A stretch of 20,046 bases of DNA from an uncultured delta proteobacterium (GTDB lineage: Bacteria > Desulfobacterota > Binatia > UBA9968), in the NCBI GenBank assembly GCA_963745835.1, contig CAVUZH010000012.1:1-20046 (forward strand). Direction: 5' to 3'. The position numbers and the translations under genes are program-made. Positions 2,062 to 11,080 of this stretch are shown in pieces (the stretch's first letter is position 1; the number at the start of each line of letters is the position of its first letter). The notes under the pieces are model-generated. The model saw only the letters and a list, made by a program, of their open reading frames with translations, was not told the DNA's origin and did no database searches.

Positions 2062-2098
2062 TTTTTTCTCCTTTTCAGAGCAGTTATCGATCTCTAGC

Positions 2099-2113
2099 GC
2101 AGCTTGTGTGCCA
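2099..2113 (-). promoter_or_regulatory. sigma54 -24/-12 promoter of the diiron/FAD oxidase operon
   Basis: Minus strand reads TGGCAC-ACAAG-CTGC (GG-N10-GC), about 38 nt upstream of ATG 2061 and next to a sigma54 activator gene. Confidence 0.75.
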
Positions 2114-2182: not shown

Positions 2183-2235
2183 TGTGAGATCTCGCAAGTT
2201 ATGAAATCTCACGGTGCTAGTTGTGAGATCTCACA
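2183..2235. promoter_or_regulatory. Three palindromic upstream activator sites, consensus TGTGAGATCTCACA
   Basis: TGTGAGATCTCGCA at 2183-2196, TATGAAATCTCACG at 2200-2213 and perfect TGTGAGATCTCACA at 2222-2235. They lie 70-120 bp upstream of the -24 box. Confidence 0.7.
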
Positions 2236-2363: not shown

Positions 2364-4316
2364 TTACCTCGGGCGTTGTATTCCGAGAGCGCGGATGCGG
2401 GAATTGAGAGTAGACGGATTGATTCCGAGCATGCTCGCCGCGCCGTCCCTGCCGGCGACACGCCAGCCCGATGAGTCGAGAGCGCGCAAAATGTTCTCTC
2501 GCTCCAGTTGCTGAAGCTCGCGAATCGGCAGAATTCGCTGCGCCGGCTGGATCACGCTTTCAATGGCCGGTACCGTTCCAGCAGCGACCTCCGAGGGGAT
2601 TTCCGGCAGAGCCCGGTCAAGGTTGATAGACCCATCCCGGGAGGTAATCACAGCCCGCTCGATCACATTCTGTAACTCACGCACATTGCCCGGCCAGGAA
2701 TAAGCCTTCAAACGTTTCTTGATCTCTTGTGAAAGAGACTCGATGCGCTTACCCATACGCTGCGCGAATTTGGCGGCAAACTCCGATGCCAGAATCACGA
2801 CATCTTCGTTTCTTTCACGCAATGGCGGCATATTGATCGGAAACACGTTCAAACGATAGTATAAATCCTCGCGAAAACGCCCTTCGCGTATCGCCCTTTT
2901 GAGGTCGCGGTTGGTTGCCGCGATGACACGCACATTCACTTTGCGCAGATGGGAGCCCCCGACGGGAGTGAATTCACCTTCCTGCAAAACCCGCAACAGC
3001 TTGGCCTGTAAATCGAGCGAAAGCTCGCCCACCTCGTCCAGAAAGATCGTGCCGCCGTCGGCCAAAGCAAAACATCCCTCGCGTCTCTGCGTCGCACCGG
3101 TAAAGGCGCCCTTCTCATGCCCGAAAAACTCGCTCTCCATGAGCGCGGCTGGGATCGCGGCGCAATTGATCGTGATCAGGGGTTTGTCGGCGCGACGGCT
3201 GGAGCCTTTAATCGCCCTGGCGATCAATTCTTTGCCGGTGCCGGTTTCGCCAAGAATCAGGACCGTGGTGTCGCCGACCGCGACTTGCTCGACATCCTCC
3301 AGCACCGTCTTAAGCGCGGCGCTTTGCCCGATAATTTGCTCAAAGCCGCCAAGCTTGTTAAGCGCTTCACGCAGATATTCGGCTTCGGCGGTGAGAGAGT
3401 TAATTTTCCGGTCGGCTTCGATTCGCTCATTGATGTTTCTCAAGATCACGGTGTAGAAGGTTTGCCTGCCAATTTCGAAGCACGAGATGGTGGCTTCTGC
3501 TGGAAACTCATTACCACCGCTCGCCACTCCGCGTAATCCGCCCGGAACCCATGCAGAGCGGCGTTCCGGGGGACACGGCTTGAACTCATCGATGAGCCTC
3601 AAGATCGTTTGATAGCTCTTGCTTGAAACGAACCGACTGAATTCACCGCCAACTGCCTGCCGCGCCGGACACTGAAATGCCTGCTCGGCGGCGGGATTCA
3701 CTCGGGTCACTTTGAGATTCTGATCAAGCTCGATAATCGCATCCATGGCGCTGTCAAATAGGCGCCGTAACTTCTCCTCGCGCTCTCGGACCTGTTTTTC
3801 GACGCTTTGCCGTTGCAACTCGGCCGCGGCTCTGGCGGCGAAGATTCTAAATAGAGCCTGAACCTTGGGTTCTTCTGGAATTGGCCGTCGATCGATCACC
3901 GCAAGATGGCCGAGAATTTTGCCATCGACGTCCTTCAGGGGCATTCCCAGATAGCTCACCGCGTTGATCGCGGTTATGTCCGGATCGTCTGGAAAGAGTT
4001 TAAAAAGATTATCGGGAAAATGAACTATATCGGCGCTGTCGATCACTTTTTCACAAGGGGTGCCGGCAATATCGGTTTCGTAGTCTTTTATCCATTGCCC
4101 ATCCATCCAAAAGGCAAGGGCGCGCAGCCGGCGGCGTTCCTGGATGTATTCAGTGACCCAGGCGCCGTGAGTGCTCAGCGCTCGCGCCAGATTTTCAACT
4201 AGCGCGGCAAAAAACCGCTCGCCGGTCTCATTTGCGGTGCCTTCCAGTATCGTCCGGAGCGCGAACTCTTCATCCAGCGCGGCGAGGGGGGTTATTCCAG
4301 GATCTTCGTTAATCAT
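2364..4316 (-). CDS. sigma54-dependent transcriptional activator (GAF-PAS-AAA+-Fis HTH)
   Basis: 650 aa. Walker A GETGTGKE, GAFTGA loop, FLDEVGE, FREDLYYRLNV, WPGNVRELQN and a C-terminal HTH. N-terminal GAF (YLGMPL..GHLAVID) and PAS (DAIIELD..VNPAAE) domains. Confidence 0.95.
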   Translation of the reverse strand: MINEDPGITPLAALDEEFALRTILEGTANETGERFFAALVENLARALSTHGAWVTEYIQERRRLRALAFWMDGQWIKDYETDIAGTPCEKVIDSADIVHFPDNLFKLFPDDPDITAINAVSYLGMPLKDVDGKILGHLAVIDRRPIPEEPKVQALFRIFAARAAAELQRQSVEKQVREREEKLRRLFDSAMDAIIELDQNLKVTRVNPAAEQAFQCPARQAVGGEFSRFVSSKSYQTILRLIDEFKPCPPERRSAWVPGGLRGVASGGNEFPAEATISCFEIGRQTFYTVILRNINERIEADRKINSLTAEAEYLREALNKLGGFEQIIGQSAALKTVLEDVEQVAVGDTTVLILGETGTGKELIARAIKGSSRRADKPLITINCAAIPAALMESEFFGHEKGAFTGATQRREGCFALADGGTIFLDEVGELSLDLQAKLLRVLQEGEFTPVGGSHLRKVNVRVIAATNRDLKRAIREGRFREDLYYRLNVFPINMPPLRERNEDVVILASEFAAKFAQRMGKRIESLSQEIKKRLKAYSWPGNVRELQNVIERAVITSRDGSINLDRALPEIPSEVAAGTVPAIESVIQPAQRILPIRELQQLERENILRALDSSGWRVAGRDGAASMLGINPSTLNSRIRALGIQRPR

Positions 4317-5463: not shown

Positions 5464-5508
5464 CGTGCCCGGTAGCGATGGAACAACCAACAACTAACAG
5501 GAGGGGTT

Positions 5509-5958
5509 ATGGAAAACGGCAAACAAACCGAAGCAAAAGTGGTTATGTTGCGAACTCAATTGGTGAAGGAGGGGCACACGCGCAACCTGCTGGCGGAAAC
5601 AGATTTAATGACATTGCGTATTCATTGCTACGCCCCGGGCATCGGCGAGAACGCGCTCCACTCCCACACCAAAGAGGATCATATTTTCCTGGTTCTTGAA
5701 GGAACCGCTGAATTCAACACGGGTCGCGACGGCAAAACCGTTCTCAATGCGAGCAAGCATCAAGCGATCGTTCTTCCAGCGGGTTGCTACTATCAGTTTC
5801 GCAATTCCGGAGATACCCCTCTGGTGATGACTCGAATCGGCGCCGGTCCGGATAAACAGGATCAGCGTCTGAACCCGGACGGCACACCGATTCCTGGAAG
5901 AACTCACGAGCAAGGCGCGGCAAAGCCGGTGCTGATTGAAGGAGCCTTTTTCGAATAA
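5509..5958 (+). CDS. Cupin domain protein
   Basis: GENALHSHTKEDHIFLVLEG (cupin motif 1), LPAGCYYQFRNSGDTPL (motif 2) and a strong RBS. Confidence 0.88.
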   Translation: MENGKQTEAKVVMLRTQLVKEGHTRNLLAETDLMTLRIHCYAPGIGENALHSHTKEDHIFLVLEGTAEFNTGRDGKTVLNASKHQAIVLPAGCYYQFRNSGDTPLVMTRIGAGPDKQDQRLNPDGTPIPGRTHEQGAAKPVLIEGAFFE

Positions 5959-6002
5959 TGTGACGGAATTTACAGAAGGCAATTACCCGCAGAAACCTAG
6001 AC

Positions 6003-6037
6003 GTGAACTGCGGCATTGCGGCGATGCCGCAGTTCAC
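6003..6037. terminator. Strong hairpin between convergent genes, probable bidirectional terminator
   Basis: GTGAACTGCGGCAT-N7-ATGCCGCAGTTCAC is a perfect 14-bp inverted repeat. There is no clear U-tract. Confidence 0.55.
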
Positions 6038-6040
6038 TAT

Positions 6041-6247
6041 TCAAGCTATTTTCATGCGCTCGATGGTAACCTGAAGCTCCCTCAGCTCAGTCACCAACCA
6101 TTCGTCCTTCAGCCGGTGCCGGGCAAGATGCGGCTTCAAAAGTGAACTGGGATAAATCTTGGCGCCACACTCGGCGCACTTTGCCGCATGCAATTTCTTG
6201 TTGGCGATTGATATCGCCACCTGGTTGCTCGCCAGTGCTGTTCGCAT
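6041..6247 (-). CDS. Small protein with a single classical C2H2 zinc finger
   Basis: 68 aa with AAGGAG RBS. CAECGAKIYPSSLLKPHLARH fits C-x2-C-x3-I-x5-L-x2-H-x3-H, followed by an amphipathic C-terminal helix. Confidence 0.75.
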   Translation of the reverse strand: MRTALASNQVAISIANKKLHAAKCAECGAKIYPSSLLKPHLARHRLKDEWLVTELRELQVTIERMKIA

Positions 6248-6286
6248 GTGCAGTCTCCTTAGTTGAAAAATTTGGAACGGTCATTG

Positions 6287-6303
6287 AGCAATGCTGATGC
6301 CAA
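6287..6303 (-). promoter_or_regulatory. sigma54 -24/-12 promoter of the zinc-finger gene
   Basis: Minus strand TTGGCAT-CAGCA-TTGCT is a near-consensus match, 40 nt upstream of ATG 6247. Confidence 0.75.
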
Positions 6304-6404
6304 TAGCATCTTGCGAACGAACGCAACTGGTGATGCGGGTTTTTGATTCCATTAACGTTATATCCGGTTCTTCCACTGCTCGATCTGACAGTAATCGTTT
6401 GACA

Positions 6405-6423
6405 TCGTGACAACCTGTCACGA
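6405..6423. promoter_or_regulatory. Palindrome, candidate enhancer for the zinc-finger promoter
   Basis: TCGTGACA-ACC-TGTCACGA, with further TGACA half-sites at 6386 and 6400, about 100-120 bp upstream of the -24 box. Confidence 0.45.
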
Positions 6424-6506
6424 CTCGATCCTGGCCGCGCTTCAATTGATAAACGCGGATGCAGTTACCGAACGGGAACGGTTGGTGGCTAGATGCGCGG
6501 CGGCGC

Positions 6507-7484
6507 TCAAGAATGAGCAAATAACTTCTTCACTGATTGGACAATTCGCTTCTGGCCAGGGAGAAATTCTTTCTCCAATGCCGGGCTGGCGGGAACCGGA
6601 GCGAACGGAGCCGCGACACGCAGAATTGGCGCGTCCAGATAGTAAAGCGCATGTTGTTGAACAGCCGCGGTAATTTCCGCGCCCACCCCGCCCTGTTCCA
6701 CGGCTTCGTGCGCGACAACCATGCGCCCGGTCTTTCTGACGGATTCGACGATAGTTCTGATATCCAGAGGTGCAACGCTGCGCAGGTCGATCACCTCCGC
6801 GGAAATTCCGCTGGCGGCCAATTCATCGGCTGCTGCCAATGCCGCGCCCACCATATTTGCCAGCGCGACAATAGTGACTTGTTGACCGGCATGCAGAACC
6901 GCCGCCTGGCCGATCGGCACCAGATGATCGCCGTTCGGCACGTCGCCGCGGGCCCAGTACAAACCACGATGCTCGATAAAGACCACCGGATTGTCGTCAC
7001 GAATGGCGGCCTTGAGCAGCCCTTTGGCGTCGGCGGGATTTGACGGCATCACAACCTGCAATCCCGGAACGTGCGCCAGCCACGACTCCAGGCTTTGTGA
7101 ATGATGCGCGCCCATGGCGCCGCTGATGCCGCATTGCACGCGCACAGTTAACGGGATCGCGAGCTGGCCGCCGGACATGTAATAGAGCTTGGCCGCATGA
7201 TTAACCAGTTGATCGAGAGCGAGCGTGATGAAATCGATGAACATGATCTCAATCACCGGGCGCAATCCTGCCGTAGCGGCGCCAATGGCCAACCCCATGA
7301 CCGTGCCTTCGCTGATTGGCGTGTTGACCACGCGTTGGCGCCCGAAGTCTTCCGCCAATCCTTTGGTGACGCCGAAGGGTCCGCCGAGTGAAACGTCTTC
7401 GCCGAAAACGTAAACCGCCGAGTCGCGGCTCATCTCTTCGTGAAGTCCGGCGCGAATCGCTTCTAAAAACGTCTGCTCTGACAT
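6507..7484 (-). CDS. 2-oxoacid/acetoin dehydrogenase E1 beta subunit (pair 1, canonical)
   Basis: FGEDV, NTPISE, LRPVIEIMFIDF, GAHHSQS, NPVVFIEH and EVIDLRSVAPLD motifs. Start placed at ATG 7484 (MSEQTF). Confidence 0.92.
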   Translation of the reverse strand: MSEQTFLEAIRAGLHEEMSRDSAVYVFGEDVSLGGPFGVTKGLAEDFGRQRVVNTPISEGTVMGLAIGAATAGLRPVIEIMFIDFITLALDQLVNHAAKLYYMSGGQLAIPLTVRVQCGISGAMGAHHSQSLESWLAHVPGLQVVMPSNPADAKGLLKAAIRDDNPVVFIEHRGLYWARGDVPNGDHLVPIGQAAVLHAGQQVTIVALANMVGAALAAADELAASGISAEVIDLRSVAPLDIRTIVESVRKTGRMVVAHEAVEQGGVGAEITAAVQQHALYYLDAPILRVAAPFAPVPASPALEKEFLPGQKRIVQSVKKLFAHS

Positions 7485-7567
7485 ATTCGATTTGGTTCCA
7501 AATGTTGAAGAAGAGGTTGCTACTTCCACGCGCGTTTCGTCGACGACATTGTCTCGGACCCTGGGAA

Positions 7568-8560
7568 TCAACTAAAAAAAGGCTGGGAGTTAATTGTGGT
7601 AACTTGAGTCGCGACTTCCTCGCTGGCTGGCCACGATGATGAGAGGGAAAAGCTGGCGGCTTCTTCAACCCGGGCGCGGGCTTCAGATTCAATCGCTTGA
7701 AGTCCCCTATCCGTCATCATCTTCTTGCTTTTCAGCAGGCGCGCGAATCTGGCAATCGGATCTTTCTTCTTCCACTCGGAAAGCTGCGACAACTCTCGAT
7801 ATTTGGCGGGGTCGCCTTCATAATGGCCGCGCAGCCGATGCGTTAAACATTCGATAAATACCGGTCCTTTGCGTGCGCGTGCGATCTCGAGCGCCTTGCT
7901 TGTCGCCGAACGCACGGCTAAGAGATCGTTGCCGTCCACCGTGCTGCTGGGGATCCCATAAGTCTTTGCATGCTGCGCCAACCGCTCGATCTTCGTATGC
8001 GCCGATAGCGGTGTGAATTCCGCATAACCATTGTTCTCGCACACGAAGATCACCGGTAACTGCCACAAGCTGGCGATGTTCAAAGACTCATGAAACGGAC
8101 CCGCTTGGCCGGCGCCATCGCCGAAAAAAACCACGGCGACTTGGCCTTGTTTTTTTTCCTTCCCGGCGAATGCTGCGCCGAGCGCCAACGGTATCGTTCC
8201 ACCGACCACCCCGGTGGCAGTGATGAAGCCCGCATTCAGCGCGACGATGTGCATCGAGCCGCCCTTGCCGCCGCAGTAGCCGGTGGCGCGACCGGCGATT
8301 TCCGCCATCAGCCGATTGACTTCCGCTCCTTTGGCCAGGGCATGACCGTGAGAGCGATGCCCGCCGAATACGAAATCGTCCGGGCGCAGCAAACCGCAGA
8401 CGCCGACCGCAACCGCTTCTTGGCCGATGCCCAGGTGAAGCAGGCCGACAATCTGCCTTTCGGCGTAAAGCGCCGAAACTTTTTCCTCAAAAGCGCGAAT
8501 CAACCACATGCGCCTCAGGAGATCGACGAGATCTTTTGAGCTTTCTTGTTTGCTGGCCAT
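7568..8560 (-). CDS. 2-oxoacid/acetoin dehydrogenase E1 alpha subunit (pair 1, canonical)
   Basis: HLGIGQEA, HRSHGH, GKGGSMH, ThDP motif GDGA...ENN and RLRGHYEGD. Confidence 0.93.
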   Translation of the reverse strand: MASKQESSKDLVDLLRRMWLIRAFEEKVSALYAERQIVGLLHLGIGQEAVAVGVCGLLRPDDFVFGGHRSHGHALAKGAEVNRLMAEIAGRATGYCGGKGGSMHIVALNAGFITATGVVGGTIPLALGAAFAGKEKKQGQVAVVFFGDGAGQAGPFHESLNIASLWQLPVIFVCENNGYAEFTPLSAHTKIERLAQHAKTYGIPSSTVDGNDLLAVRSATSKALEIARARKGPVFIECLTHRLRGHYEGDPAKYRELSQLSEWKKKDPIARFARLLKSKKMMTDRGLQAIESEARARVEEAASFSLSSSWPASEEVATQVTTINSQPFFS

Positions 8561-8696
8561 GGATGATCAGGAGCTGGGTAATGTCAAACGAAGGTCGGAA
8601 GGAGATAACTACCGATCACGAAGTGTGTCATCAGTTTACACTGGCCCACACAGAATCAAATGAGTACGTCCTTCAGGCCCTGATTCTCTGAGGAGT

Positions 8697-8776
8697 CTGT
8701 CATTCCCGCATGCTTCTAGCGGGAATCCAGGCGGAATTCGGACTGGACCCCCGATTAAAACATTCGGGGGTGACGG
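8697..8776. repeat. REP/REPIN-like double-hairpin palindromic element
   Basis: GTCATTCCCGC-ATGCTTCTA-GCGGGAATCCAG...CTGGACCCCCGA-TTAAAACAT-TCGGGGGTGAC forms two GC-rich hairpins bracketed by GTCA/TGAC. Confidence 0.7.
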
Positions 8777-8930
8777 TCTTGGGTAGTCGCATCTCTTCAC
8801 CTTCGCCGAAATTTTCGAAGGAGTACCACGAAGGTTTCAGATTCATTTGTTTTGACTTCGTACTCTTCATGGTGAATTTGATGTTTCACAGCTCGCAAGT
8901 TGCTGCTCAGTTTTCTGCAGGAATAGCAGA

Positions 8931-9902
8931 TCATGCCAACGCTGCGCGGATCGCATCGACGATGCGATCGTCTCGCGGCCCGATGTATTCTTCCAATGGC
9001 GGGCTAAAGGGCACCGGCACATCCAGAGTGGAGACACGGCGAATGCGCGTCTTCAACTTATCGAAACCGCTCTCGGCGATGCGCGCGGCGATTTCGGCAG
9101 CGACTCCGCAACTCTGATGCGTCTCGTCGACGAGCACCACGCGATGGGTCTTCTCGATTGAGGACAGGATGGTTGCCAGGTCGAACGGCACCAAGGTGCG
9201 TGGATCGATGACCTCGACGTCGATGTTCTCCTTGGCCAACTGCTCGGCAACTTTGAGGCAGCGCTGGACGGTGTATGAGGTTGCGATCACCGTCACGTCG
9301 CCGCCCTTGCGCTTGATGTCTGCAACACCGAATGGAATCGGCTTTTCGTCTTCGGCAACTTCACCGCGCACGTCCAGAAGCTTAACGTGGTCGACAAAGA
9401 TCGTCGGGTTGTCACTGGAAACGGCTGTCTTGAGCAGGCCTTTGACATCGCGCGGCGTGGATGGAAGCACGATCTCCAAACCAGGCACATTCCACAGCAT
9501 CGCCTGGGGGCTGCCCGAGTGCTGTGCCGCGCCACCACCGCGGAGTCCGTGAAATAGATGGAAGACCACCGGCACCCGGGTCTGGCCACCGGACATGTAA
9601 TAAGCGTTGGCCGCTTCATTGGCGACTTGCGGCCACGCCTCATAGATGAAACTACCGGTGCTCAGATCGACGATGGGACGGAGACCGGCCATCGCCGCTC
9701 CCGTGGCCAGCCCGCAGAAGCCAAGTTCGGAAATAGGCGGCGAGATCATGCGCTCCCGGTATTTCTGCAGAAGCTTCTGATAGACGTGGCGGTGCGGGCT
9801 CAGGCTCAGGAACGTGCCATTGATCAAGTGCACTCGCCCATCGCCGGCCATAATTTCGTCCAATGCCTCGAACTTCGCTTCGTAATAGTTTAGCTCTCTC
9901 AT
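8931..9902 (-). CDS. E1 beta-like subunit (pair 2, divergent)
   Basis: PPISE, GLRPIVD, AAQHS and EVIDPRTLVPFD motifs. GEDV is replaced by NGTF and EIMFxDF by DLSTGSF. Confidence 0.9.
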   Translation of the reverse strand: MRELNYYEAKFEALDEIMAGDGRVHLINGTFLSLSPHRHVYQKLLQKYRERMISPPISELGFCGLATGAAMAGLRPIVDLSTGSFIYEAWPQVANEAANAYYMSGGQTRVPVVFHLFHGLRGGGAAQHSGSPQAMLWNVPGLEIVLPSTPRDVKGLLKTAVSSDNPTIFVDHVKLLDVRGEVAEDEKPIPFGVADIKRKGGDVTVIATSYTVQRCLKVAEQLAKENIDVEVIDPRTLVPFDLATILSSIEKTHRVVLVDETHQSCGVAAEIAARIAESGFDKLKTRIRRVSTLDVPVPFSPPLEEYIGPRDDRIVDAIRAALA

Positions 9903-9912
9903 ATAAGGTCCT

Positions 9913-10038
9913 CAGGCTGCTGAAAAACACCCATATGCTTCGTTGGGCTCGATTTCCTCGCTCCGACGTACAAAAAAAGTACGCCTTCGCTCGTCGATAC
10001 TTCGCCCGTCTTGCATCTGGGTCTTTTTGAACAGCCTG
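9913..10038 (-). mobile_element. ~126-bp MITE-like structured repeat, copy 1
   Basis: Terminal inverted repeats CAGGCTGCTGAAAAA / TTTTTGAACAGCCTG. The reverse complement aligns end to end with the copies at 15747 and 16862. Confidence 0.8.
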
Positions 10039-10060
10039 TCAACATTTCTTAGAAGTTAAA

Positions 10061-11080
10061 TTAGGCGAAGAAGTCGCGCTCTGCTTCTTCGGGTTTCGGA
10101 TAGGGACTAGCCACTGCAAACTCAAAGGCGGAGGCGATTTCGTCTTTGACTTGCTGTTCCATGCCAGCGATCTCTTGACGGCTGGCGTGATTGGCATCAA
10201 CCAATTCGCGAATGTAAATCAGCAACGGATCGCAGGTGCGGTACCATTCGCGCACTTTCTCCGGAACGTTGCTGACATCCCACGCCAGCGAGCTATCCGT
10301 AGGCTGCGCCACTGCCGGCCAGTTGGTCTCGCTGCCTGGCCAGCGCACAGTCTGCGCCTCGACAAATTGCGGCCCTTCGCCATGGCGAATTTTTTCCACT
10401 GCTTGGGAAATTGTTGCATGCACAAGCCCGGAATCCAGGCCGTCGATCTGCTGCGCCGGAATTTTGTAAGCCGCCGGTAAGTCGGTTAAAGGATACGTCG
10501 CCATGGATGACGACTGCGCCGCGGCCGTGGCACGACCGCTGCCATACTTGCCGTTGTTCTCGCAAAGGAAGAGCACCGGCAATTTGTAGAGTGACGCGAG
10601 ATTGAACGCTTCCGGCGCCGCTCCTTCCTCCAGCGCGCCGTCACCGAACAGGCAAACCGTAATCCGGCCGTTCTTCAGCGCCTTGGCGGCGTAAGCGGTG
10701 CCGGTTGACAGCGGGATTATACCGGCCACCACTCCCGAGCTATGAAGAAATCCCAGAGAGGGCGCCACCGAATGGAAGGACCCGCCTTTGCCTTTGTTGA
10801 GGCCGTCGGCGCGTCCCAAAATTTCGGCGCACAACCGTTTGGGGTCAGCGCCGCGCGCCAATAAATGGCCGTGGTTCCTGTGGGTAGTGAAGAGATAATC
10901 ATCGGCACCCAGGCAGGACAACGCCGGCACGCCGGTGGCCTCCTGACCGATGTACAAATGATAGTGACCGCTAAAAACACCTCGATCATGCAGGGGCACC
11001 AGATTTTCTTCAAAATGACGGATCGTGAACATCCGCCGGCACAAATCCAACAACGCCTCGCGCGGTAAATTGGGTAACAT
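10061..11080 (-). CDS. E1 alpha-like subunit (pair 2, divergent)
   Basis: HLYIGQEA, THRNHGH, GKGGSFH and GDGA...ENN are present. RxxGH is replaced by RWPGS. Confidence 0.9.
   Translation of the reverse strand: MLPNLPREALLDLCRRMFTIRHFEENLVPLHDRGVFSGHYHLYIGQEATGVPALSCLGADDYLFTTHRNHGHLLARGADPKRLCAEILGRADGLNKGKGGSFHSVAPSLGFLHSSGVVAGIIPLSTGTAYAAKALKNGRITVCLFGDGALEEGAAPEAFNLASLYKLPVLFLCENNGKYGSGRATAAAQSSSMATYPLTDLPAAYKIPAQQIDGLDSGLVHATISQAVEKIRHGEGPQFVEAQTVRWPGSETNWPAVAQPTDSSLAWDVSNVPEKVREWYRTCDPLLIYIRELVDANHASRQEIAGMEQQVKDEIASAFEFAVASPYPKPEEAERDFFA

Follow-up and report, generated by a model that had tools for sequence, protein, structure and literature searches.

Classical Cys2His2 (C2H2) zinc fingers are the commonest DNA-binding domains of animals; in bacteria they are rare and almost unstudied, with work centred on Ros/MucR, which is of a different structure. 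Ros/MucR proteins are described as having a 9-residue spacer, a 58-amino acid βββαα domain and an N-terminal oligomerization domain of about 55 amino acids (PMC9779718), and a count from 2013 put predicted classical-type fingers in bacteria at 489 examples, i.e. 0.003% of genes (PMC3541406). The same source describes AFV1p06, a 59-amino acid single-finger DNA-binding protein of an archaeal virus, and its phylogeny reports the AFV1p06 finger type as absent from bacteria (PMC3541406). Here, we analyse a gene for a one-finger mini-protein of 68 amino acids in the first 20 046 nucleotides (nt) of contig CAVUZH010000012.1 (assembly GCA_963745835.1), from an uncultured soil-dwelling delta proteobacterium assigned to the Binatia (UBA9968); this whole stretch is called the window below. 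The domain class and the presence of classical-type motifs in bacteria are known; what is new is the family, so far without an entry in the catalogues, whose fingers stand alone and have a helix of extra length and which, in Binatia, appears to be under sigma-54 control.

Judged by sequence comparison, the open reading frame (ORF) at 6041–6247 on the reverse strand is a genuine, selected, stand-alone gene. It consists of an ATG start, 68 codons and a stop, translates as MRTALASNQVAISIANKKLHAAKCAECGAKIYPSSLLKPHLARHRLKDEWLVTELRELQVTIERMKIA, belongs to the basic subfamily A of the family and is preceded by the ribosome-binding site AAGGAG (6255–6260, reverse strand), 7 nt ahead of the ATG; GGAG-type sites occupy the same position in the upstream DNA of the relatives compared. 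Residues 24–44 (6116–6178, reverse strand) read C24-x2-C27-x12-H40-x3-H44, with I31 and L37 as core residues and with K30 and P33 invariant. A first-pass annotation made from these letters alone had given all of its coordinates, the ligand pattern and the two classical hydrophobic positions correctly. A word-indexed protein search found 34 homologous protein clusters with identities of 62–94%, nearly all 65–70 amino acids long, and an alignment of 35 rows from this protein-collection search (A1) has the four ligands in 33 of them, the exceptions being the frameshift-like P0033 and a 38-amino acid fragment. In a second alignment of 38 orthologues and paralogues from related genomes (A2), the ligands are invariant (38/38) at identities as low as 34%, and the invariant columns are solely M1, C24, C27, K30, P33, H40 and H44. 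Among distant small proteins reached by profile search, 47/47 keep all ligands, the invariant columns being exactly C, C, P, H and H. It is this conservation across relatives, and not a count of motifs, that lifts the pattern above chance, and the earlier claim of a real gene is borne out, with the ligands conserved in close and distant relatives alike.

Substitutions accumulated after the lineages diverged are mostly synonymous, a pattern of purifying selection as far as codon comparisons can tell. Between the window and L006, there are 29.5 synonymous and 30.5 non-synonymous changes, corresponding to a synonymous rate (dS) of 1.5, a non-synonymous rate (dN) of 0.22 and a ratio (omega) of 0.15; L025 differs from L028 by 13 synonymous versus 2 non-synonymous changes and from L038 by 37 versus 5. 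Omega ranges from 0.10 to 0.39 in all pairs with dS > 0.1 and a computable value, and synonymous sites are saturated at dN 0.2–0.3. No Rfam family matched in 5800–6600. Contigs from four soil RNA libraries of four studies (90–97% alike; 5965–6225, 5748–6219, 6007–6221 and 5506–6098) are consistent with expression of the gene, with three spanning most of the ORF and the one at 5506–6098 covering just its final 58 nt. Two points tell against so clear a picture: the window and L001 differ by 1 synonymous and 5 non-synonymous changes, the closest pairs being too similar to judge selection, and the RNA-library contigs are strandless and may include DNA, end at 6219–6225 before the predicted start and leave 6226–6277 uncovered. 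An overlapping frame of 108 amino acids (6087–6413, reverse strand) was rejected as a gene, as it traverses the promoter and intergenic DNA that diverges among relatives. The first-pass suggestion that annotation pipelines would miss the gene did not hold: gene callers find it, and its 34 clusters already sit in the protein collection, five named ‘uncharacterized OB-fold protein’, one ‘methionyl-tRNA synthetase’, six ‘hypothetical’ and 22 unnamed.

When 41 genomes related to that of the window were scanned with a family profile (counts include the unpublished G018, which has one match and supplied no sequence to the analysis), 19 had matches: 18/24 in the window's own family of the order, and 0/5 and 0/11 in the two other families. 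In a phylum-wide sample of 201 genomes, real matches occurred in the window's genome alone. The labels of 12 public loci are Candidatus Binatia (6), ‘Deltaproteobacteria’ or ‘delta proteobacterium’ metagenome-assembled genomes (MAGs; 5) and a Udaeobacter-labelled MAG (1). Genomes usually carry two paralogue types, i.e. subfamily A with 68–72 amino acids, to which the window gene belongs, and subfamily B with 66 amino acids, represented in the window's genome at C3:113314–113514. An apparent third copy in this genome (G000, contig C19) is not a paralogue and reflects an assembly overlap, with window positions 1 to about 10 150 nearly identical to C19:540,205–550,359, at the end of that contig. 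This overlap may add to the genome's ‘contamination’ figure of 9.3%.

Beyond these genomes, the family profile run against 1.84 billion representative proteins gave 168 matches at an expectation value (E) ≤ 0.001, of which 42 had E ≤ 1e-10; the majority are 47–130 amino acids long. Counted at 50% identity, the family has at least 168 clusters. Both distant contexts examined are phage-like: in L045 (5956–6177), on an IMG/VR contig, the gene stands between large-terminase and portal genes, with ParB-like and Mom-like genes also present, and in L046 (1154–1357) it is part of a run of tightly packed, overlapping same-strand small ORFs before a phage-type endonuclease. No sigma-54 promoter is present in the stretch of upstream DNA inspected at these two loci. 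Searches for loci gave one on viral contigs with an alignment (A4) and two on metagenome contigs with the single protein P0184. Neither the phage nor the plasmid record collection contained a tblastn match to the distant member P0129, and the clusters of 10 distant members proved to be unnamed.

As far as sequence can carry the claim, sigma-54 control is the best-supported part of the picture beyond the gene itself. The putative promoter TGGCAT-N5-TTGCT (TGGCATCAGCATTGCT; 6287–6302, reverse strand, with GG at 6300–6301 and GC at 6288–6289) has 0 mismatches and is the sole zero-mismatch match to TGGCAY-N5-TTGCW in the window. Such a match is not significant on its own, since at ≤1 mismatch 79/100 shuffles yield at least one. 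What counts is recurrence: 16/17 distinct subfamily A loci keep TGGCAY-N5-TTGCT at −46 to −57 from the ATG, with flanking intergenic DNA that is unalignable between the more distant loci, and a GG-N10-GC consensus site lies at about −60 in 15/15 loci of other types (subfamily B and divergent forms), 12 of which were found by regular expression, while TGGCATGCTCCTTGCG, TGGCATGCCGCTTGCG and TGGCACGGCAATTGCG were read by eye. The promoter proposed at first pass therefore gains rather than loses from comparison.

The sole subfamily A locus without it is that of G002 (L017), where about 290 bp are deleted relative to the close relative G007 (L006). This recent deletion (L017 5985–6015) fuses the end of an E1 beta gene to the mini-protein gene at roughly its eighth codon and removes the upstream half-site cluster described below, the promoter, the ribosome-binding site and the first ~7 codons, so that no start codon remains; the rest of the gene is still ~97% identical to that of G007. 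The window's own genome (G000) has one rpoN gene (Sigma54_DBD, E = 5e-62) and 33 Sigma54_activat matches, as well as 48 exact sigma-54 consensus sites, 35 of which are followed by a Shine–Dalgarno sequence and an ORF within 150 nt. Several further sigma-54-driven genes in this genome have 54–76 codons, a hint that sigma-54 signalling in this group regularly leads to the making of small proteins. Exact promoters precede such tiny ORFs at C22:457722, C3:1330600, C14:441068 and C3:325861 of G000 (all forward strand), which encode a 54-amino acid C-x2-C-x12-H-x3-C finger, two excisionase-like helix–turn–helix (HTH) proteins of 62–69 amino acids (by eye) and a Cys-rich protein of 76 amino acids.

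An important question is whether the ligand pattern really belongs to a classical finger. AlphaFold2, run with a 38-row alignment, gave a mean predicted local distance difference test score (pLDDT) of 85.7 and a predicted template-modelling score of 0.56; by successive ten residues, pLDDT is 58, 76, 94, 94, 97, 97 and 84, and hence 94–97 over residues 21–60. The monomer prediction that the first-pass annotation had proposed is thus a β-hairpin (strands 22–23 and 30–31) followed by a single continuous helix, residues 34–67 (6047–6148, reverse strand), which holds both His ligands and then a hydrophobic stripe. Read from sequence, this 3-4-3-4 stripe comprises L51, L55, L58, I62 and M65 and lies on the same helix face as the zinc ligands; conserved residues in the C-terminal helix of A2 are E54, L58 and M65. 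The first core position is occupied by I, M, V, L or F throughout the 38 rows of A2—aliphatic here, where Phe is usual—and the second is L in 36/38, with I and M once each.

Among the Foldseek rows shown for the Protein Data Bank (PDB), 32/47 are classical C2H2 fingers, e.g. SUPERMAN, ZNF484 and ZBTB20, and a SALL4 finger superimposes with a root-mean-square deviation (rmsd) of 1.1 over 26 columns; the remaining rows include 10 chains of the SAGA DUB module and two ubiquitin-binding fingers (RAD18 and WRNIP1). The family profile run against all PDB sequences gave 37 matches at E ≤ 10, 25 of them C2H2 fingers aligned ligand-to-ligand, the best and sole match below 0.01 being HKR3 (E = 0.007); AFV1p06 is not among the 37. 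Because of the predicted fold and these weak fold and profile matches, we place the protein within the classical ββα C2H2 class, as a divergent member that is absent from the catalogues and has a helix predicted to extend ~25 residues further; as such it would bind zinc. The 12-residue, eukaryote-type spacer noted at first pass is plain in the sequence, with the ββα fold following as a prediction; equally, the protein is not a Ros/MucR member, having a spacer of 12 and not 9, 68 amino acids, a single predicted helix and no ROS_MucR Pfam match.

The class assignment has to be set against several results that speak for caution, as Foldseek gave no match at E ≤ 0.001 in PDB or BFVD, the wide VIA fold search reached a best Z of 4.0 with mostly plain coiled coils, and Pfam has no family for the window protein even at E ≤ 10. 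The Pfam zf-C2H2 scan proposed in the first-pass annotation accordingly gives no match for the window protein itself. Distant members do have Pfam matches, all sub-threshold: zf_UBZ in 12/47 (best whole-protein E = 3.7e-5; cut-off of PF18439, 25.6 bits), CpXC in 12/47 and zf-C2H2 in 10/47 (best E = 0.002; one printed score of 14 bits versus a cut-off of 25.2 bits), besides zf-ChsH2 in 4/47 (best E = 1.8e-4). Four PHROGs families matched one distant member each (E = 0.0017–0.0065). The family profile also reaches long multi-finger proteins, with E-values that add up many weak stretches, and 6/7 of those scanned carry zf-C2H2-clan Pfam domains above cut-off. The nearest ESM Atlas clusters are Candidatus Binatota hypothetical proteins, together with one cluster in which 39% of members have DUF629, which we treat as a lead.

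No NCBIfam model matched the window protein either, and a literature search (with supplements and most subscription journals outside it) turned up work on Ros/MucR, on AFV1p06 and on the C4 mini-proteins of haloarchaea, and no paper that deals with this family or with C2H2 mini-proteins under sigma-54 control, in line with the first-pass view that the protein is undescribed. The label ‘uncharacterized OB-fold protein’ (JGI) was rejected: the ligands are Cys2His2, a helix is predicted to follow the finger, and 68 amino acids are too short for an OB fold. The name is that of the DUF35/COG1545 family, and a partial match to the zinc ribbon at the N-terminus of these proteins is its probable source; DUF35/ChsH2-type OB-fold proteins have a four-Cys rubredoxin-like zinc ribbon plus an OB-fold domain, whereas the mini-protein has neither.

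Upstream of the promoter lies a candidate enhancer with four TGTCA/TGACA half-sites (6386–6423, reverse strand), which include CGTGACA-ggt-TGTCACG, a perfect 8+8 palindrome at 6405–6423. In 8/11 subfamily A loci, 3–6 such half-sites, often in inverted pairs, occur between −270 and −60, where 0.3–0.9 are expected; the fixed pattern TGTCAC-N3-GTGACA found nothing useful elsewhere in the window. Subfamily B has different upstream motifs, i.e. AAAATGTCAA-N5-GGACA and TTGTAC-N8-GTACAA, and therefore the two paralogues appear to answer to different activators. A further conserved stretch follows the promoter in subfamily B, and its leader GACAGAGAGGGACAA is almost invariant just before the ATG (L025 7940–8000; same place in L026–L039); conserved beyond what a ribosome-binding site needs, this leader may be a translational control element. 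On the other side of the window gene, 3 nt past the stop and ahead of a convergent cupin gene, is a G+C-rich hairpin with 17-nt arms (6003–6037, reverse strand) that folds with −25.8 kcal/mol (z = −3.5; 0/200 shuffles equal). It has no U-tract, and a simple terminator scan gave 0 sites; strong G+C-rich hairpins of varied sequence follow the stop codon in many relatives. Both the half-site cluster and the hairpin had been pointed out at first pass, and both recur in relatives.

A candidate activator of the mini-protein gene is encoded nearby, i.e. a GAF-PAS-AAA+-HTH enhancer-binding protein (Pfam; 2364–4316, reverse strand). Its orthologue, recognized by the sensory half, is found on the mini-protein's contig at a distance of 1.3–2.6 kb in eight further genomes (tallies include G018) and was not found in G002, which is 96% complete. 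Genome-wide, 469 loosely defined sigma-54-like sites were scanned for similar half-site clusters: leaving aside the window gene and the duplicate on C19, a single site has as many as four TGTCA/TGACA half-sites upstream. This locus (L048 6284–6551; G000 C13:~89283–89550, reverse strand) precedes a gene for a Flp-type pilin of 64 amino acids, followed by genes that by eye, not by Pfam, look like those for a prepilin peptidase, CpaB and a secretin. Tandem TGTC repeats are the reported binding sites of PilR-type activators, and the pilin locus and the mini-protein gene may share an activator.

The position of the subfamily A gene at the end of a catabolic gene cluster is stable. Genes for the E1 alpha and E1 beta subunits of thiamine-dependent dehydrogenases lie upstream on the same strand in 9/9 subfamily A loci with enough flanking sequence (the window, L016, L017, L019, L020, L022, L023, L024 and L035), usually as two pairs and with an aldo-keto reductase or amidohydrolase gene inserted in 3/9. 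In the window, two successive pairs span 6507–11080 (reverse strand; Pfam) with no E2 or E3 component detected by Pfam, and stand beside genes for an NMT1-type binding protein, a luciferase-like monooxygenase and a zinc alcohol dehydrogenase. Downstream, an EamA exporter gene is present in 9/10 subfamily A loci and a convergent cupin match (Pfam) in 4/10. Subfamily B genes are divergent from an ECH_2 (hydroxyisobutyryl-CoA hydrolase-like) gene in 4/5 typical loci and adjoin an NMT1-type binding protein gene in 3/5.

Taking these features together, we tentatively favour, with not quite even confidence, a small nucleic-acid-binding regulator that is made in response to the signal of an enhancer-binding protein. 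Its gene would be transcribed on its own from the sigma-54 promoter, and the protein would therefore be made only once an enhancer-binding protein at the TGTCA/TGACA cluster is activated; transcription would end at the hairpin ahead of the convergent cupin gene. In the protein, a finger that belongs with the classical C2H2 fingers of TFIIIA/Zif268 type, and whose helix is predicted to run on for ~25 residues as an amphipathic one, would bind nucleic acid, most plausibly DNA, together with the Arg/Lys-rich stretch after it, while the C-terminal helix would probably hold an oligomer or a partner. In this way, the signal could be relayed to the neighbouring catabolic genes, i.e. the two E1 alpha/beta pairs, the cupin and the EamA exporter, as presumed targets. 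The reading is favoured because of the marked basicity of subfamily A and of most of the distant members, with net charges of +6 for the window protein, +5 to +13 in subfamily A and a median of +5 in distant members (36/47 at +3 or above). An Arg-rich stretch, e.g. TRHRRRQRW in 69-amino acid forms, runs from the finger helix into the heptad-like segment. It is also favoured because the architecture, though a weak match, recalls the finger–zipper chimera 1llm, and because AFV1p06, the nearest characterized single-finger mini-protein, is described as binding DNA (PMC3541406).

Several points make this regulator less certain. Basicity is not family-wide, as subfamily B has net charges of −3 to 0, and a single finger normally needs help for binding DNA. 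The helix positions by which classical fingers are described as reading DNA, −1, +2, +3 and +6 (PMC3541406), are P33, S35, L36 and P39 here, and an invariant P33 with a hydrophobic L36 is, from the sequence, not a typical base-reading set. Moreover, 3/11 subfamily A loci lack the half-site cluster (0 or 1 half-site), and the neighbouring activator may have another target. Directly after its gene lie three GTGAGATCTCAC-type palindromes (2184–2195, 2201–2212 and 2223–2234, reverse strand), and a second sigma-54-like promoter, TGGCACACAAGCTGCG (2098–2113, reverse strand), stands ~37 nt before an ORF for 303 amino acids (1150–2061) with no Pfam family. The repeats and the TGGCACACAAGCTGCG site are both conserved in L015 and L016, and the repeats are unlike the TGTCA cluster. 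The neighbouring GAF-PAS protein may therefore act at the TGGCACACAAGCTGCG promoter (2098–2113), probably its true target, and not on the mini-protein gene.

The alternative that survives best, though we consider it rather unlikely, is a protein-binding adaptor whose finger and amphipathic helix dock on the enhancer-binding protein, on sigma-54 polymerase as a feedback device, or on the E1 enzymes. Sigma-54-induced modulators that act by protein docking are familiar from PspA on PspF and HrpV on HrpS. Exactly those helix positions that do not suit base reading, being hydrophobic or Pro, would suit such docking, as would the unbroken hydrophobic stripe over residues 51–65 and the acidic nature of subfamily B. 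The 12/47 zf_UBZ matches in distant members and the UBZ domains of RAD18 and WRNIP1 as well as Sgf11 among the Foldseek rows point the same way, but none of the zf_UBZ matches reaches the Pfam cut-off, and the window protein gives no such match. Similarly, an orthologue of the enhancer-binding protein lies 1.3–2.6 kb away in nine genomes, and G002 lacks both a detectable activator orthologue and the promoter and start of the mini-protein gene; yet there is no enhancer-binding protein within 6 kb of the subfamily B loci and several subfamily A loci. The strong basicity of subfamily A, and of most of the distant members, also speaks against the adaptor.

Less probable still, and in our view a long shot, is a switch in which basic A and acidic B pair via their shared C-terminal helix, EL[RK]KLQxxMxRMR, with B titrating or retargeting A and each paralogue having a sigma-54 promoter to itself and a separate activator. 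Both types co-occur in 10 genomes, their charges are opposite, their upstream elements differ (TGTCA clusters versus the subfamily B motifs), and after the finger this helix is the stretch best conserved between them. On the other hand, one type occurs alone in G006, G020, G023 and G024 (completeness 80% for G006 and 86% for G020), and the A and B genes stand in unrelated neighbourhoods. As for homodimers, which the C-terminal helix could form as suggested at first pass, a prediction for the window protein (two copies, alignment A2) scored 0.02 versus a mark of 0.42 in a run made without controls, and this weighs neither for nor against them.

That the mini-protein has no regulatory role and instead holds zinc as an accessory subunit of the adjacent E1 alpha/beta enzymes, or helps to assemble them, seems very improbable. 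Such a role would explain why the gene directly follows E1 beta on the same strand in all nine subfamily A loci with enough flanking sequence, but not why a separate, tightly regulated promoter is kept instead of the gene joining the operon, why subfamily B is found away from E1 genes in five typical annotated loci, why distant members occur in phage-like DNA, or why the E1 genes persist in G002 next to a copy without a start codon. Finally, that there is no zinc finger at all, so that the Cys/His pattern arose by chance in a small, helical protein or the region is conserved but non-coding, can draw on the missing curated-model match and on statistically weak fold matches but is hardly credible given that the invariant positions across 38 sequences are the ligands, K30, P33 and the start Met and those across 47 are C, C, P, H and H, and given saturated synonymous sites at dN 0.2–0.3 and the lack of an Rfam match. 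These five readings together take up nearly all of our confidence, with the small remainder left to functions outside this list.

Overall, the family offers a minimal natural system for what one classical finger can do alone, adds a new case to the question of how the C2H2 domain arose and gives an example of a sigma-54 promoter that appears to be dedicated to one mini-protein. A bolder claim, which we regard as unlikely at present, is that these proteins form a branch of the true classical C2H2 finger, so far undescribed, in bacteria and phages, with eukaryotic spacing and fold, in free-standing one-finger form and, in Binatia, with basic and acidic paralogues wired to sigma-54. If so, this branch could be the prokaryotic or viral stock from which the eukaryotic zinc finger came, or else the result of an ancient transfer in the other direction.

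How, then, does the mini-protein compare with what has been described? With classical C2H2 fingers (TFIIIA/Zif268; PF00096 clan) it shares the C-x2-C-x12-H-x3-H spacing, the core hydrophobic residues and the predicted β-hairpin plus helix. It differs in being single, free-standing, bacterial and below every Pfam threshold, in having an invariant Pro at helix position −1, Ile in place of the core Phe and no TGEKP-type linker, and in a predicted helix that runs ~25 residues past the second His as well as in a gene served by a putative sigma-54 promoter. UBZ fingers (zf_UBZ, PF18439) are likewise ββα fingers and bind protein by a helix surface, but the window protein has no zf_UBZ match and no ubiquitin-like partner is evident nearby. 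In the designed Zif23–GCN4 chimera (PDB 1llm), the finger runs straight into a coiled-coil helix and the protein thereby binds DNA as a dimer; as this is an artificial two-finger construct, which ranked second in the VIA search (Z 4.0, rmsd 7.2 over 62 residues) in a tie with many plain coiled coils, the likeness is one of analogy only.

Among microbial proteins, Ros/MucR members resemble the mini-protein in having a bacterial Cys2His2 site in a regulatory protein, and oligomerization via a separate segment is described as important for them (PMC9779718); they have about 140 amino acids including the N-terminal oligomerization domain, whereas the mini-protein has 68. The C(P)XCG mini-proteins of Haloferax volcanii are, as portrayed in PMC6562870, one-domain zinc-binding proteins of <70 amino acids with regulatory phenotypes, but these archaeal proteins are C4 zinc ribbons or knuckles and not C2H2 ββα fingers, and no sequence relation is seen. 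AFV1p06 is described as having Glu in place of the fourth-ligand His, as monomeric and as having a third strand and not a long helix (PMC3541406). It is nevertheless a free-standing mini-protein that, in the same account, extends a classical finger fold, and distant relatives of the mini-protein, in both contexts examined, likewise lie in virus-like DNA, in their case phage-like.

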